A stretch of DNA of 64,000 nucleotides from a virus, in IMG/VR virus record IMGVR_UViG_3300030419_003599, positions 1-64,000 of that record; one strand, given 5' to 3'. The notes beneath the pieces were generated by a model. It made no database searches and was not told where the DNA came from. It saw only the letters and a program-made list of their open reading frames with translations. The stretch's first letter is position 1. Every line of letters starts with the position of its first letter. This document shows, piece after piece, positions 3,736-44,416 of the stretch. Both the position numbers and the translations under genes were made by a program.

Positions 3736-4707
3736 TTGTCAGTAAATGCTTACTTAGAAAATGGTGTATTTTGCTGCACTTACTGCATCGGGTGTAACTT
3801 CTACACTTATGTTAAGAACCCTATTCGCACTATCGTGCCTCCGAGCCTGCGAATCTATGAAGTAGGGCCTAGAGATGGGCTACAGAACTCAAAAGTGCGA
3901 TTTTCAACATCTGAAAAGGTTGAACTTATTAAAATGCTAGAAAATGCCGGTATTTCTCATATTGAAATGGGTTCATTCGTAAATCCGGCTTTAGTCCCGG
4001 CCATGTCGGATACTGCGGCTGTATTTAGAGAAGTAATAGGCCAAATAGATGCTAAAACTGAGTTAGGCGCTCTTATTCCTAATGAAAAGGGCTTCAAAAC
4101 CGCAATTATGACTGGTTTAACCCATTTTAACATCTTTTTTTCTCCATCGGAGGCTTTTAACGCCCGAAATCTCGGAAAAACACGAAATGAGGCGTTTTTG
4201 CACTTCAAAAATGTATTGAAAGATATCCCTAAAGAAAATATCCGAGTTTATGTGTCATGTGCGTTTGGTTGCCCATTTGAAGGTGAAATTGACTCAAATC
4301 TACTGAAAAAAGCGATTCAAGACGCAAATGAACTAGGTTCAACTGTTGTTCTTTGTGATACAGTCGGAAAAGCGAACCCAAAAGCAGTAGAACGGGTTTT
4401 ACATCTAGTTGATTCAGGCATTAAAGCCGAAATTGCTTTACATTTACATGAAGGGGTTAGAGGACGCTCCGGTTTATTTGAAAATATAGAGACAGCGGTA
4501 GGACTTGGGGTGCATCAATTTGATACTAGTATTGGCGGTTTAGGTGGTTGCCCATTTATGCCGGGTTCTGGAGTGAATGTGGCTACCGAAGACCTTGTTG
4601 AATGGGCAAATGAGCGTGGGTTAGACACAGGAGTTTGCGAAAATGCTCTAGCGGAGGTCGCAGCATTTGTGGCAAGCCGCATTAGTCCTATGGAGGTGGC
4701 GCAATGA
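3736..4707 (+). CDS. hmgL: Hydroxymethylglutaryl-CoA lyase (DRE-TIM metallolyase); likely true start GTG 3835
   Basis: IYEVGPRDGLQN N-terminal motif, FGCPFEG, LCDTVG, LHLH metal-binding histidines, GLGGCPF and NVATEDLV motifs. Confidence 0.92.
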   Translation: MSVNAYLENGVFCCTYCIGCNFYTYVKNPIRTIVPPSLRIYEVGPRDGLQNSKVRFSTSEKVELIKMLENAGISHIEMGSFVNPALVPAMSDTAAVFREVIGQIDAKTELGALIPNEKGFKTAIMTGLTHFNIFFSPSEAFNARNLGKTRNEAFLHFKNVLKDIPKENIRVYVSCAFGCPFEGEIDSNLLKKAIQDANELGSTVVLCDTVGKANPKAVERVLHLVDSGIKAEIALHLHEGVRGRSGLFENIETAVGLGVHQFDTSIGGLGGCPFMPGSGVNVATEDLVEWANERGLDTGVCENALAEVAAFVASRISPMEVAQ

Positions 4708-4874
4708 TTGTAGATTTGATAATCGGACTATCTGTTGTTATGCTTGTTCTAGTGGTCTGGGTTACTTGGGAAATCTCTCAGTGGGAGACAGAAGTGAACC
4801 TAACAATGGAAGAAATAGAAGCAGTACATAATGACATGTGGCAAGGTTTGCACTTAAGCGGAAGAGATGATTGA
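4704..4874 (+). CDS. Small single-TM membrane protein (56 aa; not in ORF track)
   Basis: ATGA overlap with the hmgL stop; MIVDLIIGLSVVMLVLVVWVTWE hydrophobic N-terminus. Confidence 0.6.
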   Translation: MIVDLIIGLSVVMLVLVVWVTWEISQWETEVNLTMEEIEAVHNDMWQGLHLSGRDD

Positions 4875-7336: not shown

Positions 7337-8494
7337 TTGATGCCCTCCGTTTTAGTGGAGCCTCCTATTGAAAAGGCAGCGCCTCTCGCTCTCGCCCCTA
7401 TTGCTGCAGGCACTGCTGCTACTGCTGGTGGTGTGGGTTTGGGCGCAAGAGCATTGGGTGCCATAGGAAGGTTATTCGGAAAAAAGCCGAAAGCGCCTAA
7501 AGCGCCTAAAGCGCCTGCTTCATTGCCTGCTAGTTCTAAAACAGCAATCAAACGCCCTACCCCAGTCGGTCATGTACCCGAGCCCCCTTCCCCAATAAAA
7601 CCAATAGCGCACTCTGACCCTTTTCAACATACACTAGATGTCATGCCTAAGCAACCGGGCGTACATACTGGTGCAGGCACAACAGTTACGCAAGAGGCTC
7701 TGGATATAGGAGGTCATACTGGTGCAGGCACAACAGTTACGCAAGAGGCTCTGGATATGAATATGGCGAAACCAGAGGTAAATCCTGTAGTGAGTGGTTT
7801 CAAAAGTGGGGCAGGGCAAGCGCTTGGATATGGTGCGCTAGGGGGCGCAATGACAGGAGGAGGAGGAGGCCAAAATCCTGCAATCCAAACTGCCCAACAG
7901 AGTGCTGCACAACAACAGCAGCACAATATGGATATGCAACAACAGGCTACTCAAGCCGCTGGTACTACTGCTGGGACTCAACCCGGTGTTGCATATGGTG
8001 ATACAGCCAAAAGTCTTGATAATTGGAAATTACTCCAAGAAGCAGATGCTCTTCGTAGCGGTGGAGACCCTTCTACTGCTAATCGTTTTGTGGCTGTGTC
8101 CAGAGCATTACAAAAACCGCAAGAGATTCGTAATAAGTTTATCCAAGATTATGGGCACCGAGCAGCCGAATTGCTTGGCGAAAAGGAACCAGAGTGGAGA
8201 GAGGCAGAGCATCTTTATGAGCAAGGCAAACAAAGTGCTGATTATAGAGATATGAGACAATCTCCGAGTGAATACGATGCTGAACAGCGTAACCAGTTTT
8301 TTGCTATGATGAGAAGATTAGGCATAGGTAAAGAAAGAGAACTGGCCGCTCAACAACGAGCAGAAGAGATGTTATCGCAACTAAGGCAAGATGACCCTTC
8401 TCAATATTTTTCCGATTTACCATTTAGAGTAGAAGGCTCAAATAATCCTATGGATTTAGGGCAAGAATGGCAAGAACTGCTTAAGCCAGAATGA
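7337..8494 (+). CDS. Low-complexity Ala/Gly/Gln-rich protein with motif variants (IEKA near N-terminus; NPMDLGQEWQELLK at C-terminus)
   Basis: ORF track plus motif inspection. Confidence 0.7.
   Translation: MMPSVLVEPPIEKAAPLALAPIAAGTAATAGGVGLGARALGAIGRLFGKKPKAPKAPKAPASLPASSKTAIKRPTPVGHVPEPPSPIKPIAHSDPFQHTLDVMPKQPGVHTGAGTTVTQEALDIGGHTGAGTTVTQEALDMNMAKPEVNPVVSGFKSGAGQALGYGALGGAMTGGGGGQNPAIQTAQQSAAQQQQHNMDMQQQATQAAGTTAGTQPGVAYGDTAKSLDNWKLLQEADALRSGGDPSTANRFVAVSRALQKPQEIRNKFIQDYGHRAAELLGEKEPEWREAEHLYEQGKQSADYRDMRQSPSEYDAEQRNQFFAMMRRLGIGKERELAAQQRAEEMLSQLRQDDPSQYFSDLPFRVEGSNNPMDLGQEWQELLKPE
7664..7758 (+). repeat. Tandem duplication with 51-bp period (44 bp identical; HTGAGTTVTQEALD x2)
   Basis: CATACTGGTGCAGGCACAACAGTTACGCAAGAGGCTCTGGATAT at 7664 and 7715. 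A separate AAAGCGCCT x3 lies at 7490-7516. Confidence 0.95.
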
Positions 8495-8528
8495 AGATAT
8501 AGAATGGTAAAGTTTAATTTGCCCTCTC

Positions 8529-9092
8529 GTGTGGCCTCATAACATGGTTTCGCATAGTGATGAGCAGCAAGCAGAAATTAGATTGATGGGTTTGATATTA
8601 GCCCAATCCCTATTTGTAGGAGTAGCAGTAGGTATTTTTAATGCTGAACTTTGGCTGAATCTAAATAGCCCTTTGCTAAATGGAATGACTTATTCTATGG
8701 GAGCATTTGCTATGCAAGGTCTTGGTTATTACATGTTCAAAATGTTCTTTCAACAAGGTATGGATGAAAGAATGCACATACAAGAAGGTGAAAGGCGCCG
8801 ACAGAGTCGTTATCGTGATATGCAACGAGTATTTGATGGCCGAAGAGAAGACCTTGAATTGAGAATGCAAGAAGCACAATTAGAAAATGAACTCCGTTGG
8901 ATGGAAAACAATCCCGGTAAAATCCCTACTTGGGCATCTCTTGAAAATCAAGAGAAACTATTCAATCCCACTCCTCCTTCCCATATTGCAGGTAGTCAGG
9001 AGGCTATCAATCTTGGAGTTTCTTTTGACAAGGCAGAAGAAAAAGAGAAAAAGCGGGGTTCAGACGGGAAGTTCAAAAAGAAGGATGACTGA
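8529..9092 (+). CDS. Membrane protein (2 TM + coiled coil)
   Basis: Two hydrophobic segments followed by a charged helical region; start may be ATG 8544. Confidence 0.75.
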   Translation: MWPHNMVSHSDEQQAEIRLMGLILAQSLFVGVAVGIFNAELWLNLNSPLLNGMTYSMGAFAMQGLGYYMFKMFFQQGMDERMHIQEGERRRQSRYRDMQRVFDGRREDLELRMQEAQLENELRWMENNPGKIPTWASLENQEKLFNPTPPSHIAGSQEAINLGVSFDKAEEKEKKRGSDGKFKKKDD

Positions 9093-9101
9093 GGACTCTA
9101 T

Positions 9102-9347
9102 ATGGGACGCATCTTCAAAACACCAAGTGATAATGCAGTTGAAGAGACATTAAGAGCGATGCATACCCAAAATGTATTGGATAATACTTATGAAAAAACT
9201 GTGGGTTGGGTTAAAGTCTTACTACTAGGCACTGTAGCAGTATTCACTCTTTCCGCTGTTGAGTATTATACTGACTGGAACTTATGGGAATCTACAGGGA
9301 ACTGGCTATCTGAATGGGCCGAGCGCCAATTGGAAAAGTTGATTTGA
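9102..9347 (+). CDS. Small single-TM membrane protein
   Basis: VGWVKVLLLGTVAVFTLSAV segment; GAGGA RBS. Confidence 0.75.
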   Translation: MGRIFKTPSDNAVEETLRAMHTQNVLDNTYEKTVGWVKVLLLGTVAVFTLSAVEYYTDWNLWESTGNWLSEWAERQLEKLI

Positions 9348-10064
9348 ATGTCAGCACTTGCTGGTTCAGCCCTTGTTGGGGGGATGGTATGGGCAAGAGA
9401 ATTGTGGAATTATTGGAAACCTCGTAAAGTCGGAGTTTATGGTCCACAATTAGTAGGGAAGACTACTCTTGATAGATTCATGACCACTCCGGGCGAAATG
9501 GAACCAATAGCGGAAGAAGAACGCACAACCCATTTCCGCATGATGGGTCGCTATGTTTTACCTCGCCCTACGCGTAAGCGCGTGCGTTGGAAGGGAGAGA
9601 AACGAGTTGTATATAGTTCTGATATAGGAGGGGATGAAAGATTCTGGAGCCTGTGGATTGATGATATGGTCCATAGGCAAGTAGAAGCGGTTGTATTCAT
9701 GTTTGATGATAGAGCAGCGAAAGGTGGAGATGAAGCAATCCAAGCAGTTGGCGGTTTCAAATATCTTGTAGACGCTCTCATCCATCGCCAATACCGCTAT
9801 CGTTCTCTTAAAACATGGTGGAAAGGAAAAAAGTATGCGCCTAAAATGGTTATGTTAGTTGCCAATAAAGCCGATAAATGGTGGGATGACGATGCCTCAG
9901 TATTATGGCAACAAGATAGAATTGGGGAGCACAAGGTGTTTGACCCATTTCGCCCTGACCTTATTCGTTTACAGAAGGCTGGCATCCCCACAAGGCGTGG
10001 TTTTATGGCCACTCGTATAGGCTGGCAAGTAGAAAATACTATGATAGACCTATTGAGTGGGTGA
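9348..10064 (+). CDS. Small Ras/Arf-superfamily-like GTPase
   Basis: G1 GPQLVGKTT, candidate G2 RTT, G3 DIGG followed by ERFWSLW, core strand AVVFMFD, G4 NKAD, G5-like MAT. Confidence 0.85.
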   Translation: MSALAGSALVGGMVWARELWNYWKPRKVGVYGPQLVGKTTLDRFMTTPGEMEPIAEEERTTHFRMMGRYVLPRPTRKRVRWKGEKRVVYSSDIGGDERFWSLWIDDMVHRQVEAVVFMFDDRAAKGGDEAIQAVGGFKYLVDALIHRQYRYRSLKTWWKGKKYAPKMVMLVANKADKWWDDDASVLWQQDRIGEHKVFDPFRPDLIRLQKAGIPTRRGFMATRIGWQVENTMIDLLSG

Positions 10065-10425
10065 TACCATGAGCCCGCTTGACGCCGCTTGGACAATTTT
10101 GAAATCTCGCCCTGTTTCATCTTCTGGAAAGCAGTATTCTCCTCAAGAATTGCAGCAATTGCGGGCTTTCGTTAATGCTAATATAGAAAGTCCTGACCCT
10201 AATTTACAGGCTCAAGCGCAGCAAATACTTGAAGAACTCACTACAGCCATGTCTTTTGCGGGCGGTCGTACCTCATTCAACACTCCTTCAGAGCCCATTG
10301 TCCCCGGCGCTGGGCCAGTTGTCCGTGGGGCCGGAGGCCCTGCTGCATCAGTAGGCGTTCGCCCGCCTTTACCTCCAGAACCTTCAGAAGAGGATGAGGA
10401 CGATGATAAGGCATTGCCCTCTTGA
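10057..10425 (+). CDS. Hypothetical protein with leader variant MSPLDAAWTILK|S
   Basis: GGGTGA RBS before ATG 10069; Pro/acidic tail. Confidence 0.7.
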   Translation: MGDTMSPLDAAWTILKSRPVSSSGKQYSPQELQQLRAFVNANIESPDPNLQAQAQQILEELTTAMSFAGGRTSFNTPSEPIVPGAGPVVRGAGGPAASVGVRPPLPPEPSEEDEDDDKALPS

Positions 10426-10664
10426 GCAACCTTTTTCATCTGCCTTCATTTGGGAGGGATATGGCTTACCCCACAGACACGACACTCATAGTACGGACTT
10501 CTGCCAAAAGCGACTCTCTAAGAGTGACTATACCCCAATGGGTTGTTAGGCAAATGAGGCTTAAAGCAGGGCATAGAATGAGATGGGAGTTAAAGCCTGA
10601 TGGGGATGATTTCAAATTAGTCGCTAAGCCGCTTAAAAGGAAACCCAATAAGGAGGATAATTAA
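10422..10664 (+). CDS. AbrB/SpoVT/MazE-like DNA-binding protein (likely start ATG 10461)
   Basis: SLRVTIPQWVVRQMRLKAGHRMRWEL fits the swapped-hairpin pattern; GGGAGG RBS. Confidence 0.75.
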   Translation: MSNLFHLPSFGRDMAYPTDTTLIVRTSAKSDSLRVTIPQWVVRQMRLKAGHRMRWELKPDGDDFKLVAKPLKRKPNKEDN

Positions 10665-11680
10665 TGTTGAACTTCGGGCTGCCTAGTATTGGTGGTCAAA
10701 CGCAGACCCAACAAGGGGCTCCTTTAGCCGGAGTAAATGAAGCACATATCAAAGCGCTTTCGCAGCAAGGCAATCCTGCTCTCACTTATGGTGAATTAAT
10801 GGAGCAGCAATCTGCTCAAACAGAGATGATGCGAGCCGCTGCTGAACAAAATATAGAAGTCCCTAAAGTTAATTTTTACCCAAGCCGCCATCCTAATCCG
10901 GTGAAAGCCCGTAAGCAAGATATCAAACAAGCATATCGTTTGCTTAGACCCGCTAAGCGTAGTATTTTCAGTCCTCGGCGTTGGTGGTTTGGCGGTAAAT
11001 ATCGTTATAATAAACACTCACATGTATGTGTAGTAGATGGTTGCGATTGTGAAACTCTTATCCGTTTTGATAATCTCTATATGCGCATTTCAGATGAAGA
11101 AAGCGGTCGTTCTCTCTATGAATCTTATTGGCTCAACCAAATAACTGGTGAACCTCAAGCCTTTGTAGCAAAAGAGGGAGTTACTGGTGGGCGTTCAATG
11201 AGAGGTACTTATTGTCCTGAGCATTTACATCTCTACCATTTACTCACAAAATGGGAACAAGAAGAAGATAAAGAACAAAAAGATAAACCTAAGAGCATTA
11301 GAGACCGAGTGAAACGAGGCGTATCTACTGTTGCTGTCCCTGTTTCTGTTGTAAAAAAGAAAGATAATACTCCGCCTATGTTACAAAAATATGAACAATT
11401 CTTTGCTGAATTAGATAAAGACTCTAAACGCTATAACGGAATTAATATCTTACATTACAAAAATCCTGTCACAGAATTAAACGATGTTACGATGATTGTT
11501 TTTGACCTTCGTATTTTCCAACACGAACTAGAACAAATGGAATCCCAAGCGGCAGAAGCCTTCCAAAATATGTTACAGCAACAGCAACAAATGCAGACTC
11601 AACAGGCATCAATAATGGCTCCCCAAGCAACTATAGCCGAGCAACAGGCTAATGAAGTGCCTATGGTTCAGGAGCAGTGA
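10664..11680 (+). CDS. Hypothetical protein, possible Zn-binding (CVVDGC...YCPEH), Gln-rich ends
   Basis: ORF track; Cys/His pattern. Confidence 0.7.
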   Translation: MLNFGLPSIGGQTQTQQGAPLAGVNEAHIKALSQQGNPALTYGELMEQQSAQTEMMRAAAEQNIEVPKVNFYPSRHPNPVKARKQDIKQAYRLLRPAKRSIFSPRRWWFGGKYRYNKHSHVCVVDGCDCETLIRFDNLYMRISDEESGRSLYESYWLNQITGEPQAFVAKEGVTGGRSMRGTYCPEHLHLYHLLTKWEQEEDKEQKDKPKSIRDRVKRGVSTVAVPVSVVKKKDNTPPMLQKYEQFFAELDKDSKRYNGINILHYKNPVTELNDVTMIVFDLRIFQHELEQMESQAAEAFQNMLQQQQQMQTQQASIMAPQATIAEQQANEVPMVQEQ

Positions 11681-12312
11681 GTGTTATGGGGATGTTTGAT
11701 AGGCAGCCGACTGCAACTGGGACAAGATTGAACTTAGGAGCGACCGGTGCTCCGGCTTATAATGGCGCTGCCGCAAACCCATTTGCGCAAGCGAGACAAC
11801 CTATTGGAGGTGCTTTTGGTGGTGGTGTGGCATCTGCTTTTGGTATGCAACAACCTGTGCAACAACAAGTGACTCCTCCAAATGAAACTGAAATCCTTAT
11901 TCATCTACTCAATAGTGGATATCCGATAGAGCGTTGGCTTACAGGCGCTGGCTTCCAATCATTTGTTCAAATGTTATCAGTAATGATGGAATTGGCTGTA
12001 GTCAATTTCTTTCGTGATGCCAAGTTCGTAATTGATGATGATACTGGGTCAATGATTCTTGACCCTACATCTTTATCCACTGAAATGCAGACACTATCTA
12101 GTGAAAATGTGGTAAGTGAGTTCGCCAATGTGCTAGCAGAAGCAGAGAAAACTAAGACAGAAGCAACTGCCCTCCAAACAGAGATTGCCACTTATTCTCA
12201 ACAGAGCATGATGGGTTCTGCTCTTGATGCTGCTCTTGCTAATGAAGGATTTATGGAAAAGATGGGTAGTGGCATTGGCTCATTGGGCCGCGGATTTATA
12301 GGAATGAAGTGA
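11677..12312 (+). CDS. Hypothetical protein
   Basis: Coupled ORF; Gly/Ala-rich N-terminus and helical C-terminus. Confidence 0.7.
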   Translation: MSVMGMFDRQPTATGTRLNLGATGAPAYNGAAANPFAQARQPIGGAFGGGVASAFGMQQPVQQQVTPPNETEILIHLLNSGYPIERWLTGAGFQSFVQMLSVMMELAVVNFFRDAKFVIDDDTGSMILDPTSLSTEMQTLSSENVVSEFANVLAEAEKTKTEATALQTEIATYSQQSMMGSALDAALANEGFMEKMGSGIGSLGRGFIGMK

Positions 12313-12572
12313 TTAAAATGATTAAACCTCCAGAAATGACAGGATTTGTACCTAAAGGGCTTGCTCATACTACTATGGATATTTTTAATCCCAAAAAGAA
12401 AGTAATAGTTGATATGATAATGGTTCAACTTTTGAGTCTCATAATTGTGTTTATGGGCGTCCTTGCTTTTGCCAACCAAAAGTTGGATGCTGCAGATATG
12501 TCATATGTCATGGCAGGTTTATTTTTTAGTCTCATAATGCTAGGCGGAGTTTATGGTCGTATAGCGAGATAG
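12309..12572 (+). CDS. Small 2-TM membrane protein (holin-like topology)
   Basis: Two hydrophobic helices with a short basic C-terminus. Confidence 0.65.
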   Translation: MIKMIKPPEMTGFVPKGLAHTTMDIFNPKKKVIVDMIMVQLLSLIIVFMGVLAFANQKLDAADMSYVMAGLFFSLIMLGGVYGRIAR

Positions 12573-12574
12573 CA

Positions 12575-12829
12575 CTACCATTTATCTAAAGGGCATTTAC
12601 TACTACTTAAACTAGTTTTAACCCTCATTTGGCAGCCACATTCACGGCACATATTGAGAGTCTTATTCCAACTAGGGCAAATCTCACAAATTGCTCTTCT
12701 TTCGGCCTTTTTCTCCTTTGAAACAAACCTACGATTAACCACATCTCCTGCCGCTTTGTAGAGTTCAGCGGCACGCGAACGCGGTGCTCTGGAGAGCCTC
12801 TTCATCGGCTTTATGGTAAAGTGGCTCAT
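12575..12829 (-). CDS. Small Cys-rich Zn-binding protein
   Basis: ICEICP...CRECGC...K...CPLDKW pattern common in phage hypothetical proteins. Confidence 0.7.
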   Translation of the reverse strand: MSHFTIKPMKRLSRAPRSRAAELYKAAGDVVNRRFVSKEKKAERRAICEICPSWNKTLNMCRECGCQMRVKTSLSSSKCPLDKW

Positions 12830-13558
12830 TGTAAAGACTTATCCACCGAGCCACCCTCACAGAGGGTGATGGCAGAGCGAGAGCGAGTGACAAAGAGGTC
12901 ATGCTCTTTCTGTCAATGTGATGAAAGAGACGAGTTAGAAGAACAACTTCAACAAGGTCTTATCTCCACTAAAGAACTAGACCGAGATATGGGTTGGAGG
13001 GCTAATACTGCTGACCGCCATTTCCGTAATCATATGGGAGATTATGTTAGAGGAGCGAATCCTTCTTGCCCTATATGCTCTCATCCGAATAGAGCCAATA
13101 TTGAGCGTTCTTATTACGAAGGGGAAATAGGTAGTGAGGCTATTGCCGAAGAAGCAGGAGTCCCAGAATCTACTGTTTATCATCATATGAGACTTCATTT
13201 CCAACCACTTGTTCAACAAACCGCAGCATTTGAAGTGGCTCTTGCGGCAGGAACCGAGGTCCAAACATTGCGTGAGAATGTAGAGGCACTTAACCATAAA
13301 TTACAACAATTGATGAGTGAAGGGAGTGTCCATGAAGAAGGATTCGTAAGAGATGCAGTAACTCTACACAAAGAAGTTCGTGAAAGTATCAAGGATTTAT
13401 TGAAGTTTGAAGAGAAATGGGGTGGGGAACCAGAAGCCCAAACTGTCAATAATACGATTAATGTACTAAAAGTAGAATTAGCGCAAGAATCTCCAGATGT
13501 TTGGCGCAGACTCAAGAAGCGTCTTTTGGAACAAGGAGATGTAGAGGTGATTGAATGA
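12821..13558 (+). CDS. Tandem Zn-finger/HTH protein with coiled coil; candidate terminase small subunit (likely start ATG 12869)
   Basis: Two CxxC...HxxxH units with HTH-like spacing followed by a coiled coil; lies upstream of the terminase large subunit. Confidence 0.55.
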   Translation: MAHCKDLSTEPPSQRVMAERERVTKRSCSFCQCDERDELEEQLQQGLISTKELDRDMGWRANTADRHFRNHMGDYVRGANPSCPICSHPNRANIERSYYEGEIGSEAIAEEAGVPESTVYHHMRLHFQPLVQQTAAFEVALAAGTEVQTLRENVEALNHKLQQLMSEGSVHEEGFVRDAVTLHKEVRESIKDLLKFEEKWGGEPEAQTVNNTINVLKVELAQESPDVWRRLKKRLLEQGDVEVIE

Positions 13559-17931: not shown

Positions 17932-18815
17932 AGCCAATAGATTCTGCTTGGGCGATTCTTAAGAATCCGGCTTTAGAAACAATGACACCTGCCGCTGTAG
18001 ATGCCGCAGGACCCGGTTTTTTCCTTGGACCACAAGGAATACAAGGGCAGAGTGGTCCTTTTATGTTCAATATGGGGGGTAGAGGGGCTAATCGCCCTAG
18101 TACAGCCAGACTCCTTCATGGTTTAGCCACAGGTCAAGCACCAAGAGGGACTAAGCGCGCACTTGCAGGAAGAGCGGCTGGGACTGGTTTAGGTCTGGTC
18201 AATGCTTTATTGGCTGCAGAAAGAGCACAGCGTGGTGGAGATATTGAAAGTGCTCTTGGTGCCGCTTATGCTGGCTATCAAGTACCTAAACAAAGTATTA
18301 CTGGTGCCGCAGAAGGGGAATGGAGCCATAAACCAATGTTGGATGCCCATGGGCGACCTATGCGAAAACCCAGATTAGATGAAGAAGGTAATCCAATATT
18401 AGACAAAACAGGGCGACCTATAATGGACCCAATGTTAGAGGAAGAACAAACACCCGGTGGCGCAATCGGAGGTCAGATGGAGGCCGCTCAACTTGGTCGT
18501 TCTTTTTACGATAATATAGTACAAGAAGAAGACCCTATTAATTTCCCTAGCGCTGCATCCGAATATGGCAACCTTCCTCCCCCTAAAGAAACATCTCTAC
18601 AAGCAGGGGTCCCAAATACAGCACCTACACTTGGTCAACTAAGAGCCTCAGCGACAGACACAATGCCACAAGGAGACCCTAATAGAATAACAAGTTGGAC
18701 AGGTACAGCAGTAGACCCAGCAGCGGACGCAACGCAGAATGTGGGGTTAGATGTATTCACAAACAGTGAACCGATGGACTTGGCTTTCCGTATGTTAAAG
18801 GGGGCTATGAGATGA
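17928..18815 (+). CDS. Hypothetical protein bracketed by motif copies
   Basis: MKPIDSAWAILK at the start; NSEPMDLAFRMLK at 18762-18800. Confidence 0.75.
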   Translation: MKPIDSAWAILKNPALETMTPAAVDAAGPGFFLGPQGIQGQSGPFMFNMGGRGANRPSTARLLHGLATGQAPRGTKRALAGRAAGTGLGLVNALLAAERAQRGGDIESALGAAYAGYQVPKQSITGAAEGEWSHKPMLDAHGRPMRKPRLDEEGNPILDKTGRPIMDPMLEEEQTPGGAIGGQMEAAQLGRSFYDNIVQEEDPINFPSAASEYGNLPPPKETSLQAGVPNTAPTLGQLRASATDTMPQGDPNRITSWTGTAVDPAADATQNVGLDVFTNSEPMDLAFRMLKGAMR

Positions 18816-20278
18816 GTGATGTTGAGAAACTCATTGAAGAAATGGACCGAGAAATGGCGGCCAAATCATTTGAGTTCTTTTTTACTGATATACTCGGGTA
18901 TGATTTCAATGACCATCACCGCGAGTGGGTAGATTGTTTGGACAATCACCGCTACTATGTAGTTAAAGCGGCTCGTGACCACGGTAAAAGCACTTTATTC
19001 ATGTCTTATGCTCTATGGATAGCGGCATTTAATCCCGGTACTCACATTATGATATTCAGTCACTCTCTTGAGCAGACTCTTGAGCATATGCGTATGATTC
19101 GTAGCCATATTGACGCTGAACCCATCCTACAATACCTCAAGCCACAAGGTATGCCATGGGCTAAATCCTACATGGAGTTCACAAACGGCAGCCGTTTGAT
19201 GGCTAAGTCGGTCGGCGGGGCAACTCGTGGTTTCCACCCTGATGTTGTAGTATGCGATGATATTCTTTGGGGTTCAACTGCTGGAGAGTTGGCTAGAACC
19301 GCTGATTGGTTTTATTCAGTTCTACTCCCTGTTCTTCACCACACTGGCCGTCTTATGATGGTAGGGACTCCATTTTCATATAATGACCTTTACACTGAAT
19401 TAGAATCCAAAGATGCTTTTGAAGTTGGAACTTTTCCTGCTATGGATTCTGATGGTATAGCATTATGGCCTAACCGTTGGGATGAAGAAGCACTAATGCA
19501 AAGGCGTATGTCAATGCCTGCTATCCAATTCGCCCGTGAGTATCTCTGTGAGCCTATTCACGATGTAGCAAGTATGTTTCCAATGGATATTTTGGAACAG
19601 GCGCGTGATGAAAATCTACGATTACTTGACCGGGCCGAAAGTGAATATGATGAAGAAGGTGAAAATATCGGCGTTTTTGGGCAACACTTTGTCGGTTGGG
19701 ACCCTGCTATTGCTTCTGATAAAAATGCAGACTATACAGCCATAGTAACAATGCGGACATTAGATGACGGCATTAAACAAGTAGTCCATGCCATCCACGA
19801 AAAGGGTTTGAACTCCGAAGCACAGAAACGCCATATCATTTTACTCAATAGTCGTTTCCAACCTGACCTTATTGAATTAGAAGGCAATAATTTTCAAAGA
19901 ATGTTTGAGACCGAATTGAGAGGTATGGATATACCAATTCGTACTTTTATGACAACTAGAGCACGAAAAGAGAGTTTATTCATGTCTCTTCTTCTCGCTT
20001 TTGAGCAGGGGCAAATTAGAACACCTTATGGGGATGAGAAGAGCAAAATATTTACTCATAAATTAGAGACTGAATTGAATAGATTTGGTATGACTAAACA
20101 AGGTAAGTTAGAGAGCGTGGGTGTGCATGACGACCTTGCTATGGGGCTTGCGTTAGCCAATTGGGCTACTAAAGAGTTCAAGGGCTCTGTTGTGATGTTA
20201 GATGATTTTCTTCCCGGGTTTGGGGAATGGGTCCAAGAAGAATTAGGTGGAGGAAGCCACCCATGGTATGTGATGTAA
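18812..20278 (+). CDS. terL: Terminase large subunit
   Basis: Walker A AARDHGKST, Walker B VVVCDD, coupling motif VGTP, RNase H-like nuclease motifs GWDPA...ADYTA and HDDLAM. Confidence 0.93.
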   Translation: MSDVEKLIEEMDREMAAKSFEFFFTDILGYDFNDHHREWVDCLDNHRYYVVKAARDHGKSTLFMSYALWIAAFNPGTHIMIFSHSLEQTLEHMRMIRSHIDAEPILQYLKPQGMPWAKSYMEFTNGSRLMAKSVGGATRGFHPDVVVCDDILWGSTAGELARTADWFYSVLLPVLHHTGRLMMVGTPFSYNDLYTELESKDAFEVGTFPAMDSDGIALWPNRWDEEALMQRRMSMPAIQFAREYLCEPIHDVASMFPMDILEQARDENLRLLDRAESEYDEEGENIGVFGQHFVGWDPAIASDKNADYTAIVTMRTLDDGIKQVVHAIHEKGLNSEAQKRHIILLNSRFQPDLIELEGNNFQRMFETELRGMDIPIRTFMTTRARKESLFMSLLLAFEQGQIRTPYGDEKSKIFTHKLETELNRFGMTKQGKLESVGVHDDLAMGLALANWATKEFKGSVVMLDDFLPGFGEWVQEELGGGSHPWYVM

Positions 20279-24968: not shown

Positions 24969-27900
24969 ATGTGGATGAAAAAACAAGAAGGTCCAATAGA
25001 GGTTTATGAGCGTGCTCGCTCTACCTTAGCCAAGTCCTTAATGGACGGTATTGACCAAAAAAATGCTGCTGCTGAGTATTATTTTTCATTACTCAATTTA
25101 CAACAACATGGCGCTATTCGCTCATGGGATGAAGGAGATTGGGTTCTCCAGAAAATGATGGATGTAATTCTCAAAGATGATATTCAATTAGACAGCGACC
25201 AAAGCCCTGATTTAGGTGAAGGTGGGGGTCTTGAAGGATATAGAGAGACTGAACGAGCACTTGTCAATCATGCTTGGAGAGGGAGATACAAGCCGTTTCG
25301 CCCTCCCGCTGAATGGAAAAATGAACAACTAATGGCTGGAGATGAGCCGCATGGGGGTTTAATGCATGGTGCTTGGCCCGGATTAAAACATCTTAAACCC
25401 GGAGAATATCCCCATTTTCCTAATGAACACCCGTTTTCTTCAGATAATCATCCGCTTCTACAAGGAATGGAATATGGGACCCCAGAGTTTGTAGAAACAC
25501 TTGCTTCATTTTATTTGAGGCCAGACCCCAATACTCCTTCTAAAGCAGAGGAGGCTGCTATTGCTGAACGCAAATGGGAGATAGCCCATACTAATCACGC
25601 TATTACAAATCCTATTCATAGAACTGATGTGGGTCGCCATAGACAAAAAGTAAAACAAAATGAAGCCCATAAAACTCAACAAGAAGGCGAAGATTACGAA
25701 GCCATTTATGGTGATATTGAGATTCCTGAGAGAGGTATGTGGGCTAACCAAGGGGTACCTCAAGAGGAAGAAGAACGAGATTTCCCTCGTAGCCCATTCC
25801 TTGGACCATTAATAGGTAAAGGAGAAGGAGCACATGGCGCCCATCTCAATGATATATACAACCACCATTTTAACCGTTGGAAAAATAATCCTGAAAACTC
25901 AGAAGTTGTAGATGGGATAAAAGGGACATCTACTGAAGAAAAGGAATGGAACTTAAGGCAAGCGCATATGGAACATATGCGTAATGAATGGGTCAATGGA
26001 GAAGACCACATAGATGACGATGGTAAAGCCCACTCTTCTAAGTTAGGGTGGCTCGGTTATATGGGTGGTATGGAGTTTTTGACTCCTACAGAGCGGACTG
26101 ATGTAGTAAATCATATGCTAAATAATGGTACTGATTATGACCAAAACTCACCGCATGTTTCAATGGGTAGAATAAAGCGTAATTTTATGCAACGCTCTGT
26201 GCCCGAGTATTTGTGGTGGTATCGCCATCCCCAAATGCATGGACCTAATTTCCCTCAAATACCTGAGTTCCCTTATGAATATGAAGGTTCAGCGGGTTTC
26301 CCTGAATTACTTCAAGAATCTCAATACCATCTGGCGGGAGATACAGATGAAAGCATACATGATGTTCTATTAGACCATTTCAATCAAATGATGGGTTTTG
26401 AAGGGACTTCTGAACATACATTAATGCCCAGAATTATGCCTAATGGTAAAATCTACAAACAACGAGAAAGTGAAAGGTCATTACCGATACTTACTGACCA
26501 TACATATCGTATGTTAGCAGGTTATGACGAAAATGGGAATGCTTATCCTGCAAATGAACATCCTATTTTTGGCGAAAAATGGGAAGGGCCGTTGATTGGA
26601 CACGATGAATATAAGCAAGTGTATAAAAATGCCCTTGATAGCGCAAAACAGTCAATAGAAGGAAAAGGCATCCGAAATGCTGCTATCAATCATAGGGCAG
26701 CAGTTGGTCCTACAAAACAAGAAATTGAAGACCACAACCTCGGCGATTGGTATCTTGATAATACTAATGGGGAACATACCGATACGCTCGCTAGCCATTG
26801 GCACAAACCGTTCAATAAAGGCGGATTGAATCGGTCTCAAATGCATTATCTTCAAGCCCTCCATAGTTTTTTGACGACAGGTATAACTAGAGATGACCTT
26901 GAAACTAAAAGCGGCAAAGAAAAAATGCATCATAGCCATTCCTTGATTGGTAGTGGGGTGCACAACCCTGTTACAGGTGAATTAGATGGGTTTACTTTGC
27001 GCGATGATATGATGGGCATGTTGGCTTCAATTCATCCACCTATCGCTAGACCTCCGCGTTTAATGAAAGTCCCCGGTGAAACTCCTGAACAGGCAAAAAA
27101 GAGAAAAGAATGGAACTCCACCCCTCCTGAAAGAAAAATAGCAGAGATACTCAATCTTCATGAATCATCAGGGCCTGTAATTGGCCCAGACCTTAAGCCG
27201 ATTTTCCCCCCTCGTTCCGATAAGCATAATATCACATTAACTGCTTCAACTAATCATCCTGAGTTCTCCCAAAGAGCCATGCGTTTGAGTGATAGCGATA
27301 GACAAAAAGAATTAGGTACAAAAATGGCTTGGGATATGGATAAGCGTAATCTCCATACATATACTCCTTTTAATCGCATGGAAGCCCCTTTTAATCCTCA
27401 AGGACATATTAATCCGCGCACTGGTTCTATTATCTCAAATCGTATGGCTACTTTACTTGGGAGAATGCATCCCCCCAGTAACCCAATGCAAAGTAAATCT
27501 CTTAGTTTCAAAGATATAAGTGGAGGTTTAGTACAACCTCAACATATCAGTACAGGAGATATCCCTTCGTTCATGATTCAACAAGAATTGGTTACTCCAC
27601 AACTAGGTGGTCCTTCATTAGAAGAAGATAGAATGACTAAGATAGCCAATACTATAGTTGAAGAACTTATTGGTTTAGAAGAAGAAATGCATCATTCTCA
27701 AGGAAATGAGGAGAAAATGAAATCTCTTATTAATGAGTATAAGAGCATGGAAGAAGATTTGCGTTCTCTTGAGCAAGGTCTCATGGGGATGGATATAGAA
27801 GGCGCTAAATCTATGCATGGGAAAGGTATGGATTCATGGATAAAACATAACGATATGATGAGTAGCCATTTTGATGCAATTACTAATGTAGCGCAGCAAT

Positions 27901-30560
27901 TACGAGAGCAAATGGAAAAGGAGCACCCCGACCTTTATACTCCTGATGACCCATTAACTATGTTATCTAATGCTCTACAAACATTCCGTTTCGCTAATCG
28001 TTACATGATGGAAATGCCACATGAGCATCATGGGCAGCACGGTCTGGCATATGGAGAAAGTATTAGAGAAAGCCGACCTCTTGGGGAGATGTTAGGGCGA
28101 GACGCTAGTCCTTTTTCTCTTATAGCACAAGGGGCTCAAGGTCTTGATGCCCGAAAAATCAACCCTAATCATTCTGCCGAGGAAGTTATGGAATTACTTG
28201 GTATGAATCCAGAAGACCCTATTCATAAGAAGAACGCTAAAGCCTTGCTCCAAGCGTTGGACGGGAAAGAAATGATTCCATTGAAGGTATCAGAAGCCTA
28301 TAACGCTGGACTCATCCCAAATGTTGAACCAATAGCAGGAGATTTACATGATTTGGCTGATAAAGGAGACGATATTGTACATGGTGGTTTGCGCCGTGCA
28401 GATTATATGTTTAGACATAAAGGAGACGAAGCAGCAGAACACGGTCTTACTTGGGTGCCATCAGCATCACATGGAGAGCGTAGAGATATGCCCCGCTCTG
28501 GTGGCAGTGGGCGCGCTCCTGTCAAGCGGCATAACGACCGACTTGATGCGTTAGAAAGAGCCAATTCCCATATTCTTTATGACCCAAATGTAGAGATTCC
28601 AACAGAAATCGCCCCTACTACTGAAACTGTACAAACATGGTCTAATTATCCAATTCACCCAGTAGGCCCCAATGGTACAGGCACTGCTTTGGATTTATTA
28701 GAAGGAGACCGCATGAATTGGGGATGGGGCATGGCACCCGATTTCATACCCCGATTCCGAAATGATGGTTCAGTGCAAGTAAATCGTTCTAATGTGCCTG
28801 TCCCTACTCGCTTGCATAGCGTACCAGCGCCTTATTTATTGCAGGTTTTCCCTGAATTAAGTCAGCATTTAGGAGGAACAGACCTCTATTTATCCGAACC
28901 TAATATGATGACTATGAATGCATTAGGTGGAATGCCTACAGATGTTCCCGGTATGCTAACTAATTCTGATGACGATATGAGTATTTTAGGTTTGACTGAC
29001 CCAGATAGTCTTCTAGTAAAAGCCGGTCCCGAAGATTGGGCTCCGCCTATTAGACCAATGCATCGTATTTTCTCCAAAGAAGACTTAAACGCATTAAAAG
29101 GTTTTAGCGGAGACTGGTTAATATCCAGAATACCACAAGGGGAACGACTTATTGTTAAGAAAAAAGGAGGGAGGATTAGTGCATATGATGAAAATGGTGC
29201 TCGCAAATCATTAGAAACTGGTATGCCCGGCTCTTTCAAATCTATTTCTGATGAAGATTTCGTAGTAGATGGCATTCTCAATGAAAATCAATTTCAAGTA
29301 TTGGACATCCTTAAGCACATGGGAGATGATGTATCCGATTTACCTACTCGCGAAAGGGTGAAATTACTCCGAGCGCATTACTCTAGTAATGAAAATGTGG
29401 AAATACCAGCCCCTCATAATACGCGCACAACAGATGAAGAAGGTTTAGTGAAGGCTTTAGAAGGCTTAAAAGAAGAAGGAAATGGAGTATATCTACTTAG
29501 AGATGCGCAATCAACTTACATGAAAGGAGAACGAAGACATCCCAAATGGGTGCTTTTGAGGTCTCCTCAAGAAGTGAATCTTATTGTTCTTGACCGGAGA
29601 GGTAGCGGTCCTTTCTCCTATAGATTGGGAGCAGGGCCTCTTATTGATAGTGAAGGACTAGGTAATCGGGCCAAATCATTTGACGAAAAACCCTACATGG
29701 ATATTGGTACAGTAGTAAGGTCAGATAAAGCATTCAATGTAGGCGATATCGTTAATGTCGGGGTAGATAGTGTCACTCAATCTAGCCGTAAAGGGCGGGA
29801 TGTCTATACTATTCAAGCACAAGATGTTATTGGTGAAGGCTTCGGTGAAGGGCCAGCGAGTTTGGAAACTTTATCCCTTCTCACTAAATCTCATCCCCCT
29901 ATTCCATGGCCACATGAAGTATCACTTTCGGGAGACTGTGTACATGTAAGTATTCCCTCACTTAATGACGAAATAATCTACAAAGCACATGAATGGCCAG
30001 AGGGTTGGTTCATACATTCTCCATCTGCTATTATGGGAGATATGGCCGATACTGCTTATCCTATTCGGCTCGCTGAAAGCCTTCGCCCTTATTGGTCTCC
30101 TGTAGCAGGTGCTATGTTGAAAGGTTTGGAATATGAGCCGGAAGAAGAGAAAAAGGAAGAAGTCCATGAATCACAAGATGATGCAGAACCACTGATAGAA
30201 CCTAAGAAAATAAAAGACACTTTCCATAAACCGACTGTGACTAAGGCTTTAGAAGTGGCTTTACGCGCTTTAGAGTTAGTAAGTAAAGAGCGAACTACTT
30301 GGACAGGGTCTCGTGGTATGGGCTTTGACCAAGGCACTCCTACCGAATCTCCCCATGGCCCTACTAGTTTAGTCAATGAATCCACACTTCCTGATTGGGA
30401 TTTGAAACAAAGACCAGCAGAAGACCCAGAGAAACCATGGCCTAAAAAGTCCAAAAATAATTCAAAATCGCAAGATGATATACATGAAAAGGTCAAAACA
30501 GAAGAAGGAGATGAAGGCGATTTGGATATAGATGCAGAAAGCGCTACTCTATCTATTTGA
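24969..30560 (+). CDS. 1863-aa head-module protein containing a degenerate ATP-dependent DNA ligase (adenylation + OB) fold
   Basis: ~29025-29890: WLISRIPQGERL (motif I lacking Lys), FVVDGIL (III), FQVLDIL (IIIa), LPTRERVKLL, STYMKGERRHPKW; OB-like YRLGAGP...IVNV. Confidence 0.75.
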   Translation: MWMKKQEGPIEVYERARSTLAKSLMDGIDQKNAAAEYYFSLLNLQQHGAIRSWDEGDWVLQKMMDVILKDDIQLDSDQSPDLGEGGGLEGYRETERALVNHAWRGRYKPFRPPAEWKNEQLMAGDEPHGGLMHGAWPGLKHLKPGEYPHFPNEHPFSSDNHPLLQGMEYGTPEFVETLASFYLRPDPNTPSKAEEAAIAERKWEIAHTNHAITNPIHRTDVGRHRQKVKQNEAHKTQQEGEDYEAIYGDIEIPERGMWANQGVPQEEEERDFPRSPFLGPLIGKGEGAHGAHLNDIYNHHFNRWKNNPENSEVVDGIKGTSTEEKEWNLRQAHMEHMRNEWVNGEDHIDDDGKAHSSKLGWLGYMGGMEFLTPTERTDVVNHMLNNGTDYDQNSPHVSMGRIKRNFMQRSVPEYLWWYRHPQMHGPNFPQIPEFPYEYEGSAGFPELLQESQYHLAGDTDESIHDVLLDHFNQMMGFEGTSEHTLMPRIMPNGKIYKQRESERSLPILTDHTYRMLAGYDENGNAYPANEHPIFGEKWEGPLIGHDEYKQVYKNALDSAKQSIEGKGIRNAAINHRAAVGPTKQEIEDHNLGDWYLDNTNGEHTDTLASHWHKPFNKGGLNRSQMHYLQALHSFLTTGITRDDLETKSGKEKMHHSHSLIGSGVHNPVTGELDGFTLRDDMMGMLASIHPPIARPPRLMKVPGETPEQAKKRKEWNSTPPERKIAEILNLHESSGPVIGPDLKPIFPPRSDKHNITLTASTNHPEFSQRAMRLSDSDRQKELGTKMAWDMDKRNLHTYTPFNRMEAPFNPQGHINPRTGSIISNRMATLLGRMHPPSNPMQSKSLSFKDISGGLVQPQHISTGDIPSFMIQQELVTPQLGGPSLEEDRMTKIANTIVEELIGLEEEMHHSQGNEEKMKSLINEYKSMEEDLRSLEQGLMGMDIEGAKSMHGKGMDSWIKHNDMMSSHFDAITNVAQQLREQMEKEHPDLYTPDDPLTMLSNALQTFRFANRYMMEMPHEHHGQHGLAYGESIRESRPLGEMLGRDASPFSLIAQGAQGLDARKINPNHSAEEVMELLGMNPEDPIHKKNAKALLQALDGKEMIPLKVSEAYNAGLIPNVEPIAGDLHDLADKGDDIVHGGLRRADYMFRHKGDEAAEHGLTWVPSASHGERRDMPRSGGSGRAPVKRHNDRLDALERANSHILYDPNVEIPTEIAPTTETVQTWSNYPIHPVGPNGTGTALDLLEGDRMNWGWGMAPDFIPRFRNDGSVQVNRSNVPVPTRLHSVPAPYLLQVFPELSQHLGGTDLYLSEPNMMTMNALGGMPTDVPGMLTNSDDDMSILGLTDPDSLLVKAGPEDWAPPIRPMHRIFSKEDLNALKGFSGDWLISRIPQGERLIVKKKGGRISAYDENGARKSLETGMPGSFKSISDEDFVVDGILNENQFQVLDILKHMGDDVSDLPTRERVKLLRAHYSSNENVEIPAPHNTRTTDEEGLVKALEGLKEEGNGVYLLRDAQSTYMKGERRHPKWVLLRSPQEVNLIVLDRRGSGPFSYRLGAGPLIDSEGLGNRAKSFDEKPYMDIGTVVRSDKAFNVGDIVNVGVDSVTQSSRKGRDVYTIQAQDVIGEGFGEGPASLETLSLLTKSHPPIPWPHEVSLSGDCVHVSIPSLNDEIIYKAHEWPEGWFIHSPSAIMGDMADTAYPIRLAESLRPYWSPVAGAMLKGLEYEPEEEKKEEVHESQDDAEPLIEPKKIKDTFHKPTVTKALEVALRALELVSKERTTWTGSRGMGFDQGTPTESPHGPTSLVNESTLPDWDLKQRPAEDPEKPWPKKSKNNSKSQDDIHEKVKTEEGDEGDLDIDAESATLSI

Positions 30561-43223: not shown

Positions 43224-44416
43224 TGGGGGTTCCAATTCGTTTAATTCGCACAGACGGAGAGAAGATTCCTCTGATGGCAGAAAGCATCACAATGACAGTA
43301 GATAGGTCAGTGGGCTCTATGCCTCTTCCATTCTCAGGTAGTCAGCGTGTGGGTTTGGATTTCAATAGGGCTAAAGCGGCTATAGTTATTACAGGTGTAC
43401 TTACTGATGACGGAAGAGACAAGACACAAACAAGTTCAGCAAGTTTTTGCTTTATTGATTTCGCGAAGACTAAGTTTAACAGGACTTGGTATAGCGCAGC
43501 CTCTTTGGTATTAAATGCAGTTCCTATTTACAATAAAGATATCATAATACTTGATGCACTGGGGAATGAGCATACTTTTCGGCTCACTAATCAAGCCGCT
43601 CTTGCTACAAGTGCTTCAGATATTGCTTCAACGGGGCCGGGTAATACGATAGTGTCTGTCCCAATCGGTAATGCTGCTTCTGCTGCTAATGTGGCCAGCG
43701 CTCTAGTATTAGGCATTAATAGCCTTTCTCATCCTAGTGGTGTCAGTGCTGGTAGTCAGCCGGGTTTTTGGTTCAACGCATCAGCGGAAGCATCTGAAAG
43801 AGACCGTACTCAAGGTAATTGTAAAGTGAAAATTAAACAATCTACTCACGGCCCTCATGGGGGCAACGGTCCGACTTTTCGGGGATGGGGAGGTAGTTGG
43901 TTTGTTGCGACAGCAAGCCATCGTTCTGCTTTTGATACGCCTGCTTATACGGTATGGGAAAAAGGTACGGTCGCAGTTGGTCCTAAATCTGCTGGTGATA
44001 AAGCAATGGACCTTTACGGTTCTCTCAATAATATGAATAACAGTAGTGCTGAATGGAAGGAAAATTTACTGCCCGGTGATTGGTTTGATACATATCAAGA
44101 AAATGTAGATGATGATGACGCTGGGACTGGAGATTATATCATTGGTATCCAGATTCCATATAATTCAATGGTTAAAGGTTCAAACGGAGATTATGTGCAA
44201 CGCAATTTTTTCATGCCCACAGGGAAAAATAAGACTAAAAATAATAAGGGTTCAGAATCCAATAATTCGCCGGTAGATGTAGATTTCCGCCCATGGAACT
44301 TTGGTGGTACTAAAGGCATTAAAGGCACAGTCCAACAATTTGTTATCACTTATGATGCGGGCGAAACTGTCTATAATTATCAATTGACATTCTTGCCTGT
44401 TGATATAATTATTTGA
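43223..44416 (+). CDS. Putative distal tail/baseplate protein
   Basis: Directly follows the tape measure gene. Confidence 0.5.
   Translation: MGVPIRLIRTDGEKIPLMAESITMTVDRSVGSMPLPFSGSQRVGLDFNRAKAAIVITGVLTDDGRDKTQTSSASFCFIDFAKTKFNRTWYSAASLVLNAVPIYNKDIIILDALGNEHTFRLTNQAALATSASDIASTGPGNTIVSVPIGNAASAANVASALVLGINSLSHPSGVSAGSQPGFWFNASAEASERDRTQGNCKVKIKQSTHGPHGGNGPTFRGWGGSWFVATASHRSAFDTPAYTVWEKGTVAVGPKSAGDKAMDLYGSLNNMNNSSAEWKENLLPGDWFDTYQENVDDDDAGTGDYIIGIQIPYNSMVKGSNGDYVQRNFFMPTGKNKTKNNKGSESNNSPVDVDFRPWNFGGTKGIKGTVQQFVITYDAGETVYNYQLTFLPVDIII

Follow-up and report, generated by a model that had tools for sequence, protein, structure and literature searches.

A predicted Arf/Sar1-like small GTPase within a conserved, mobile membrane-protein gene unit of magroviruses

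The 64,000-nucleotide stretch of viral DNA considered here, referred to as the window, comprises bases 1-64000 of the 108,650-bp IMG/VR record IMGVR_UViG_3300030419_003599. Between positions 8529 and 12572 it carries a tight series of co-directional genes in which a 238-residue protein with the motifs of a small GTPase is preceded by two transmembrane (TM) proteins and accompanied downstream by a putative Zn-binding protein and a helical protein. The GTPase is the central and best conserved gene of this five-gene unit, whose core order is 2-TM protein, 1-TM protein, GTPase, Zn protein and helical protein; in the virus group to which the window belongs, group 1, a further 2-TM protein is added (Table 1).

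The genes at the locus and the virus that carries them

Table 1. Positions of the unit's genes, the flanking genes and other features of the genome
Feature	Position	Strand	Remark
187-aa membrane protein	8529..9092	+	Open reading frame (ORF); first gene of the core unit
81-aa single-pass membrane protein	9102..9347	+	ORF; one TM segment by hydropathy
238-aa predicted GTPase, Arf/Sar/SRbeta-like branch	9348..10064	+	Starts MSALAGSALVGGMVWARELWNYW
GTPase motifs (DNA positions)	G1 9441-9464; G3 9621-9632; G4 9864-9875	+	
122-aa ORF, Pro/Ala/Gly-rich, acidic C-terminus	10057..10425	+	Variable insertion, outside the core unit
80-aa SpoVT/AbrB (MazE-like) fold candidate	10422..10664	+	Variable insertion, outside the core unit
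338-aa Gln-rich putative Zn protein	10664..11680	+	10% Gln; second most conserved protein of the unit
211-aa helical protein	11677..12312	+	Conserved helical core
87-aa protein with two TM segments	12309..12572	+	Last co-directional gene of the block
84-aa Cys-rich protein, DUF6171-like	12575..12829	-	Boundary between the unit and the packaging genes
245-aa protein with helix-turn-helix (HTH) and Cys cluster	12821..13558	+	First gene of the packaging block leading to TerL; flanking, outside the unit
TerL	18812-20278		
HMGL-like (HMG-CoA lyase type) gene	3736-4707	+	
56-aa TM ORF	4704-4874		Follows the HMGL-like gene and overlaps its end
1,863-aa ORF	24969-30560	+	Between the portal and protease genes
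5,526-aa tail-region ORF	44413-60993	+	
Tandem array of small paralogues	91,400-93,500 of the genome	-	Outside the window

From 8529 to 12572 the gaps between genes range from +9 to -8 bases. The genes of the unit are real and not chance ORFs, because homologues are present in more than 380 IMG/VR contigs (at least 238, at least 140 and 4, the last two figures belonging to groups 2 and 3 described below) and in 471 matching protein clusters. Every ORF that a first-pass annotation of the region had named is present where it had been placed, and the sequence confirms its central observation, a 238-aa GTPase with G1, G3 and G4 motifs directly downstream of two TM proteins. A Gln-rich Zn protein, a helical protein and a 2-TM protein do follow the GTPase, as that annotation had it, but the 122-aa and 80-aa ORFs that it left unmentioned (10057-10664) intervene. 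Both are variable insertions: among 24 related group-1 loci the former was detected only in the two closest relatives (L001 and L002) and the latter in the same two and weakly in a third (L011), while in the other loci the Zn protein comes directly after the GTPase. The 122-aa ORF matches no Pfam or PHROG family; the 80-aa ORF has a match to Pfam MazE_antitoxin (E 0.0017) that lies below the curated cut-off.

The first protein of the unit, found in all 24 of these loci, has hydrophobic segments at about residues 17-41 and 52-75, an Arg/Glu-rich helical tail and a Lys-rich C-terminus; one strong TM window exceeds the hydropathy threshold, and the stretch at about 52-75 is judged from the sequence and the alignment of homologues. 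In the 81-aa protein the N-terminal 36 residues are strongly conserved (MGWLFKTPSDDAVExTLRxxHxxN..D..YE...GW), so that 13 of its 15 invariant alignment columns fall within the first 35 residues; conservation is poor in the TM segment, and Trp is frequent at the C-terminus. The stop codon of its gene abuts the start codon of the GTPase gene with a zero-base gap, and in one locus (L021) the two overlap by one base. In the protein P0080, encoded on a 1,627-bp public contig, the GTPase is joined in frame to the C-terminal portion of the 81-aa protein (...WVSGDQ-MVEPAGT...), with Gln in place of the separating stop. This single contig may represent a sequencing error or a tolerated natural fusion, and it fits, weakly, with the two proteins working together. 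A complex prediction for the GTPase with GTP and Mg against the 81-aa protein returned 0.00 with no verdict from the tool and speaks neither for nor against binding.

Downstream of the GTPase, the 338-aa protein has invariant C122, C127, C184, H187 and H189 (C..DGC ... TYCPEHxH), which form a putative Zn site; a profile search of the PDB and searches of the Atlas, BFVD and VIA gave no match to a known fold. In two loci (L015 and L020) its gene overlaps the GTPase gene by 4 bases. The 211-aa helical protein has a low-complexity Gln/Asn/Gly-rich N-terminus and a Gly-rich, basic C-terminus. The 87-aa protein is present in 22 of the 23 loci that reach its position and is conserved in group 1 only, with no counterpart at that position in groups 2 or 3. 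The block ends at the 84-aa gene, whose place and opposite orientation are kept in all 23 loci that reach it (Pfam DUF6171, E 7.6e-5, below the cut-off; phrog_13558, E 2.5e-13). The HTH protein beyond it (Pfam HTH_20, E 2.1e-7) is conserved equally widely, in 23 of 23.

The window comes from a magrovirus, one of the tailed viruses that infect marine archaea of the Poseidoniales. Pfam scans of its large ORFs identify TerL, portal, prohead protease and an HK97/SU10-type major capsid protein (MCP), together with an HMGL-like enzyme; in the rest of the record, genes on the opposite strand specify a family B DNA polymerase (PolB), a thermosome-type chaperonin (Cpn60_TCP1) and a SNF2 helicase. Published magroviruses, tailed viruses that infect archaea of Marine Group II (Poseidoniales), are characterised by this gene set (PMC5434244, PMC10768690), and the HMGL-like gene is among their features too (PMC10768690). 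A morphogenetic module combined with an archaeal-type replisome and a chaperonin, a genome size of about 90-110 kb and a link to Poseidoniales place the virus in the order Magrovirales. The link comes from the GTPase itself: a homologue sits on a 106-kb contig (CACGHY010000002.1, 106,262 bp) of a Poseidoniales single-amplified genome, and of 101 sampled Poseidoniales genomes only this one, the genome with the viral contig, contains the family. The gene is therefore viral and not of the host, and the assignment of the host is independently supported.

Further observations concern the genome and its host. CACGHY010000002.1 is a magrovirus-like contig of near genome length within a single-cell assembly, and as such provides a direct virus-host link. 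Two short contigs with the viral GTPase were binned in metagenome-assembled genomes of Maricaulis and Parvibaculum, probably by mis-binning. The HMGL-like gene is kept near the unit in 11 of the 24 related loci. The 1,863-aa ORF shows weak matches to an ATP-dependent DNA ligase and to an m3G-cap-binding (nucleotidyltransferase-like) domain, both below Pfam cut-offs. The single tail-region ORF of 5,526 aa is unusually large for a tailed archaeal virus and is followed by a 493-aa ORF with a weak Phage-tail_3 match.

A diverged small GTPase and its relatives

The GTPase carries G1 as GPQLVGKT (residues 32-39), G3 as DIGG (92-95) and G4 as NKAD (173-176), and D92, G95 and N173-D176 are invariant in the alignment of its homologues. 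Among 138 distinct viral homologues, which were drawn from the fetched loci by a pattern requiring G1, DxxG and NKx[DL], GKTT occurs in 137 and NKxD in all 138, figures to be read in the light of that selection. At the G5 position the window protein has MATRIGW (A221, T222), where distant members of the family have the canonical ISA[K/R/L/Q]. An AlphaFold model built on 18 homologues (predicted local distance difference test, pLDDT, 71; predicted template modelling score 0.72) matches small GTPases of the PDB in Foldseek at E about 1e-6. G1 GxxxxGK[ST], G3 DxxG, G4 NKxD and a predicted six-stranded G-domain fold, hallmarks of Ras-superfamily (TRAFAC) small GTPases, are all present in the window protein. 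Motifs and model together indicate that the gene encodes a genuine, highly diverged small GTPase of the Arf/Sar1/SRbeta-like branch.

Its relation to that branch is a remote one. Against Pfam Arf (PF00025) the window protein scores 10.2 bits, short of the gathering cut-off of 22.3, and its best sequence match in the PDB is IFT22/RabL5 at E 0.12. Across 11 diverse members of the family, Arf is a Pfam match in 8 and SRPRB in 3 (best E 5.9e-6). Both curated cut-offs are passed by only one member, P0204, the most distant one and cellular-looking (Arf 36.2 bits), to which the viral profile aligns over a region that includes the N-terminus (hhalign probability 97.6%, E 3.5e-12). A P0204-like protein lies on a cellular-looking metagenome contig with an insertion sequence element and without the unit, and neither P0204 nor P0157 returned anything from the viral contig collection. 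We do not file the GTPase as a member of the Arf family, because its score stays under the Pfam Arf cut-off and its catalytic Gln is not a fixed one; it probably works like Arf, Sar1 and SRbeta and is distantly related to them.

The family appears to be restricted to viruses and to reach Pfam Arf and SRPRB solely through the one cellular-looking intermediate. A collection of 5.8 billion proteins contains 471 clusters that match the GTPase, and the 120 listed are all at least 70% identical to it. The family profile found 87 matches, mostly fragments, among 1.84 billion representative sequences, and no bridge to a canonical family save the weakly Arf-like P0204. Because cellular families stay below significance against the viral profile, long branches would dominate any tree made with Arf, Sar, Rab, Roc and MglA. 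In the ESM Atlas the nearest neighbours are viral clusters labelled 'putative GTPase', followed by the nearest non-viral ones, which are bacterial and Arf-like. A tblastn search of a 'phages' collection with the window GTPase and with P0145 gave no match, though this collection may not hold magroviruses. PHROG matches of the GTPase to 'holin' (E 0.48) and 'tail' (E 0.089) were dismissed as noise. No fused form of the GTPase longer than 417 aa was found. The first-pass annotation had called small GTPases rare in tailed viruses. The family proves to have hundreds of members, which qualifies the statement, yet all those that can be placed belong to this one archaeal virus lineage.

The protein is strongly basic, with an isoelectric point of 9.8 (family median 9.7), and contains 5% Trp compared with 1.5% in the large ORFs of the window. 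Switch I and G3 are separated by a conserved basic hairpin, LPRPTRKRVRWKGEKR, and G4 is preceded by an insert that is basic and rich in Trp. These features raise the possibility of a nucleic-acid-binding role for the GTPase and the Zn protein, in the regulation of late transcription, genome processing or packaging, in which case the TM proteins would be unrelated neighbours. The isoelectric point and the hairpin agree with such a role, and the Zn protein, the AbrB-like ORF and the HTH protein are all encoded nearby. The AbrB-like ORF is, however, a variable insertion, and both TM genes accompany the GTPase in all three virus groups with abutting or overlapping frames, so we attach little probability to this explanation.

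The first-pass annotation had further described the N-terminus as hydrophobic or amphipathic. A helix is indeed predicted at residues 3-23, and the hydrophobic character of the N-terminus is kept in all groups; its mean hydropathy is modest, no 19-residue window reaching the Kyte-Doolittle threshold of 1.6 for a TM span, and its amphipathic character is likewise limited.

Conservation and mobility of the unit in three virus groups

In each of the 24 group-1 loci fetched first from IMG/VR the order is 187-aa TM protein, 81-aa TM protein, GTPase, Zn protein, 211-aa protein and 87-aa TM protein, followed by the reverse-strand DUF6171-like gene and the HTH protein and then on to TerL; 23 of the loci extend to this position. 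Across them the identity of the GTPase (58-84%) rises and falls with that of TerL (49-87%), the pattern to be expected of a core gene with vertical inheritance.

The same series recurs in two more distant groups. Group 2, with at least 140 contigs, has a GTPase about 31% identical to that of the window; the series there is 2-TM protein (about 140 aa), 74-aa protein, GTPase, Zn protein (about 226 aa) and helical protein (about 235 aa), and it is placed between the MCP and tail tube genes. Homology to the window proteins is detectable for the Zn protein (E 4.9e-6) and, by hhalign, for the helical protein (E 2e-6). In the four contigs of group 3 the unit follows the chaperonin gene, and homology is evident for the Zn protein (E 6.9e-40) and, again by hhalign, for the 2-TM protein (E 1.4e-10); the 1-TM counterpart shows weak profile similarity (E 0.012), and the helical protein is a counterpart by position only (E 0.1). 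Since the same series occupies three different genome positions, the five genes move as one block. Failure of the cluster to be conserved as a unit, which the first-pass annotation had named as the outcome that would overturn its proposal, is contradicted by its occurrence in three diverged groups and at three genome positions.

The positions themselves could point to a membrane-anchored platform at which procapsid assembly or DNA packaging would be nucleated or licensed by the GTPase together with the TM proteins, the GTPase acting as a checkpoint switch; the way in which the T4 portal and gp40 initiate the prohead at the membrane is comparable. The unit lies directly upstream of the block of HTH, TerL and portal genes in group 1, between MCP and tail tube genes in group 2 and next to the chaperonin gene in group 3; its conservation tracks that of TerL, and the basic GTPase would suit such a platform. 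On the other hand, three different neighbourhoods, independent of any single morphogenetic gene, argue against a fixed head or packaging partner, and we know of no tailed virus that needs a small GTPase for assembly. On balance we regard this explanation as unlikely, although it is the most probable of the alternatives to release.

Transcription of the unit runs in the same direction as that of the virion genes; a look-up of RNA runs returned none that cover 7337-13558. Across the genome of 108 kb, three of the roughly five credible TM proteins belong to the unit. An apparent second TM cluster at 91.4-93.6 kb of the genome was rejected as an antisense artefact of an array of small paralogues on the minus strand. 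The array is an observation in its own right: it consists of at least 7 tandem paralogous genes of 60-120 aa, most of which begin with MIDTDK[YH]EGH and many of which contain the motif LLAEVKRLRE.

A unit so rich in membrane proteins might also act on the host envelope, blocking or modifying a receptor, secretion or division, with superinfection exclusion or host redirection as the outcome; the SRbeta-like similarity of the GTPase could then indicate interference with protein targeting. Genes of this kind are usually accessory, fast-evolving and early, whereas this core unit is strongly conserved and runs in the direction of the late genes, and takeover or exclusion is accordingly an improbable function for it.

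Candidate functions and comparison with known systems

The reading that we favour, tentatively and at rather less than an even chance, is that the unit is a GTP-switched, membrane-acting late module whose purpose is the timed disruption of the membrane for virion release. The two membrane proteins would supply the membrane site, at which the basic, Trp-rich GTPase would dock through its N-terminal helix in the GTP state, in the manner of Sar1 and Arf. Roles as regulator and effector may fall to the Zn protein and the helical protein, and the assembly would perturb the host cytoplasmic membrane late in infection, releasing virions from a host that has no murein wall. In a stricter form of this proposal, which we consider possible but doubtful, the five-gene unit would be a GTPase-gated egress machine, a type of lysis without a described counterpart: the membrane proteins would accumulate until the Sar1/Arf-like switch, controlled by the Zn protein, triggers a timed rupture of the membrane.

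Several considerations lead us to prefer release. The unit resembles a mobile late cassette standing at the positions of phage lysis cassettes, and its first TM protein has a holin-like outline. In classic phages the lysis cassette is found just upstream of the terminase (lambda) or between the head and tail genes (P2). The share of the genome's TM proteins that the unit holds, the basic and Trp-rich nature of the GTPase and its predicted N-terminal helix speak for a link to membranes, and a small GTPase of archaeal cells, ArvA, is able to drive membrane vesiculation (PMC10927574). In the absence of murein in the host a membrane lesion could suffice. Finally, lytic release is obligatory for such viruses, and yet the egress machinery of tailed archaeal viruses is "completely uncharacterized" in the words of a 2024 review (PMC10791045).

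A number of observations weigh against this preference. Residues 1-20 of the GTPase are modelled at pLDDT 49-67 only, and the N-terminal helix is no more than moderately amphipathic (hydrophobic moment, muH, about 0.3) and contains Arg and Glu. The position of the catalytic Gln of Arf is Asp96 here and varies within the family (Q 75, E 53, D 9, H 1); hydrolysis may therefore be slow or dependent on a partner. The basic charge of the protein fits contact with nucleic acid no less than with a membrane. The TM proteins of groups 1 and 2 show no significant similarity (E 0.056 for the 2-TM and 0.21 for the 1-TM protein), so that they are counterparts in architecture only. Holins are usually small and poorly conserved, while the TM proteins of the unit are 30-75% identical across group 1. 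The embedding of the unit among head, tail and packaging genes, moreover, fits a role in assembly equally well.

A further possibility is the remodelling of membranes without lysis. Here the unit would form vesicles or compartments in the manner of Arf, Sar1 or ArvA, the last a cellular archaeal small GTPase that drives membrane vesiculation, as it does in Haloferax together with a Zn-ribbon partner (PMC10927574); the products might be a replication or assembly compartment or virus-induced extracellular vesicles. The predicted Arf/Sar-like fold and N-terminal helix are compatible with this, as is the fact that the virus brings a replisome and a chaperonin with it. Since a search of 41 Poseidoniales genomes did not find OapB/ArvB (PF09846), the virus may be providing a function that its host lacks. 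Set against this are the neighbours of the GTPase, which match neither DUF2073 nor DUF2072, and the family itself, for which no greater closeness to ArvA than to the remaining small GTPases is detectable, although no direct comparison with ArvA underlies this last point; compartments are also unreported for archaeal tailed viruses. We judge such remodelling to be quite unlikely, and release remains our preference.

As for novelty, automatic annotation already labels some members of the family 'GTPase SAR1 family protein' or 'putative GTPase domain-containing protein', and the GTPase call itself is therefore not new. The main texts of five magrovirus papers (PMC5434244, PMC10160649, PMC11706807, PMC8651126, PMC10768690), their supplements aside, do not mention a GTPase, and a full-text literature search on GTPases in viruses of Marine Group II brought up nothing relevant. 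No description appears to exist of the virus-restricted family, of its membrane unit of five genes or of that unit's mobility. In the surface ocean magroviruses are one of the most abundant kinds of virus, and both they and their hosts are uncultured. For the exit of tailed archaeal viruses the unit offers a concrete five-gene candidate that is core, virus-specific and rich in membrane proteins and includes an Arf/Sar-like switch. If the egress reading is true, it would be the first release mechanism identified for tailed archaeal viruses, and in a group highly abundant in the surface ocean; whatever its role, it adds a virus-restricted branch to the small-GTPase superfamily.

The closest parallels to the GTPase itself are Sar1 and Arf (PF00025). 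It shares with them the GKTT P-loop and NKxD, a DxGG with Leu-Trp at positions +10/+11 counted from the Asp of G3, within the stretch covered by the Pfam Arf alignment, and a predicted N-terminal helix of about 20 residues before the first strand. The Leu-Trp pair is common to Arf, Sar1 and G-alpha, and the spacing before G1, about 31 residues here and a median of 31 among the viral homologues, is that of Sar1 as well. It departs from them in having Asp in place of the catalytic Gln (Arf) or His (Sar1), with variation at this site within the family, in the extra basic beta-hairpin between switch I and G3 and the basic, Trp-rich insert before G4, in the lack of a Gly2 for myristoylation, and in being encoded by an archaeal virus. 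SRbeta (PF09439) is likewise an Arf-like GTPase with a hydrophobic N-terminal anchor, and SRPRB is matched by the three family members mentioned above. The window GTPase, in contrast, has no significant SRPRB match and an N-terminus too weakly hydrophobic for a clear TM span, and no partner of the SRX type was recognised among its neighbours by Pfam or by the PDB profile search of the Zn protein.

With phage holin cassettes the unit has in common that it is compact, mobile, oriented with the late genes and equipped with small membrane proteins, that it is located just upstream of packaging genes or between head and tail genes, and that its 187-aa protein combines two TM segments with a highly charged C-terminal tail. 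Its TM proteins are, however, larger and better conserved than typical holins, and to our knowledge no holin system contains a GTPase. Pfam and PHROG scans recognised no endolysin, spanin or cell-wall hydrolase, the last of which would be unexpected for a host without murein, and no holin family apart from the noise-level PHROG line on the GTPase (E 0.48). The first-pass remark that the window contains no recognisable endolysin agrees with the Pfam scans of large ORFs, which were not exhaustive. On these scans the unit is not recognisable as a holin-endolysin cassette.

Small GTPases are also known from giant viruses, including the Rab of mimivirus, but those are clear captures of eukaryotic Rab proteins with high similarity to their sources, whereas the family described here has no detectable close cellular source and resides in a conserved multi-gene membrane unit of a tailed virus of archaea.

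A further comparison is with the ArvA/ArvB/ArvC (OapABC) system, in which a small GTPase with an N-terminal amphipathic helix is encoded in an operon with a Zn-binding protein and acts on archaeal membranes (PMC10927574). Membership of that system was considered and rejected, as no neighbour of the viral GTPase has a Pfam match to DUF2073 (ArvB/OapB) or DUF2072 (ArvC) even at E <= 1, and no relation of the viral Zn protein to DUF2072 is detectable. The viral unit differs further in adding two or three TM proteins. It would represent, after ArvA, a second archaeal case of a small GTPase tied to membrane proteins.

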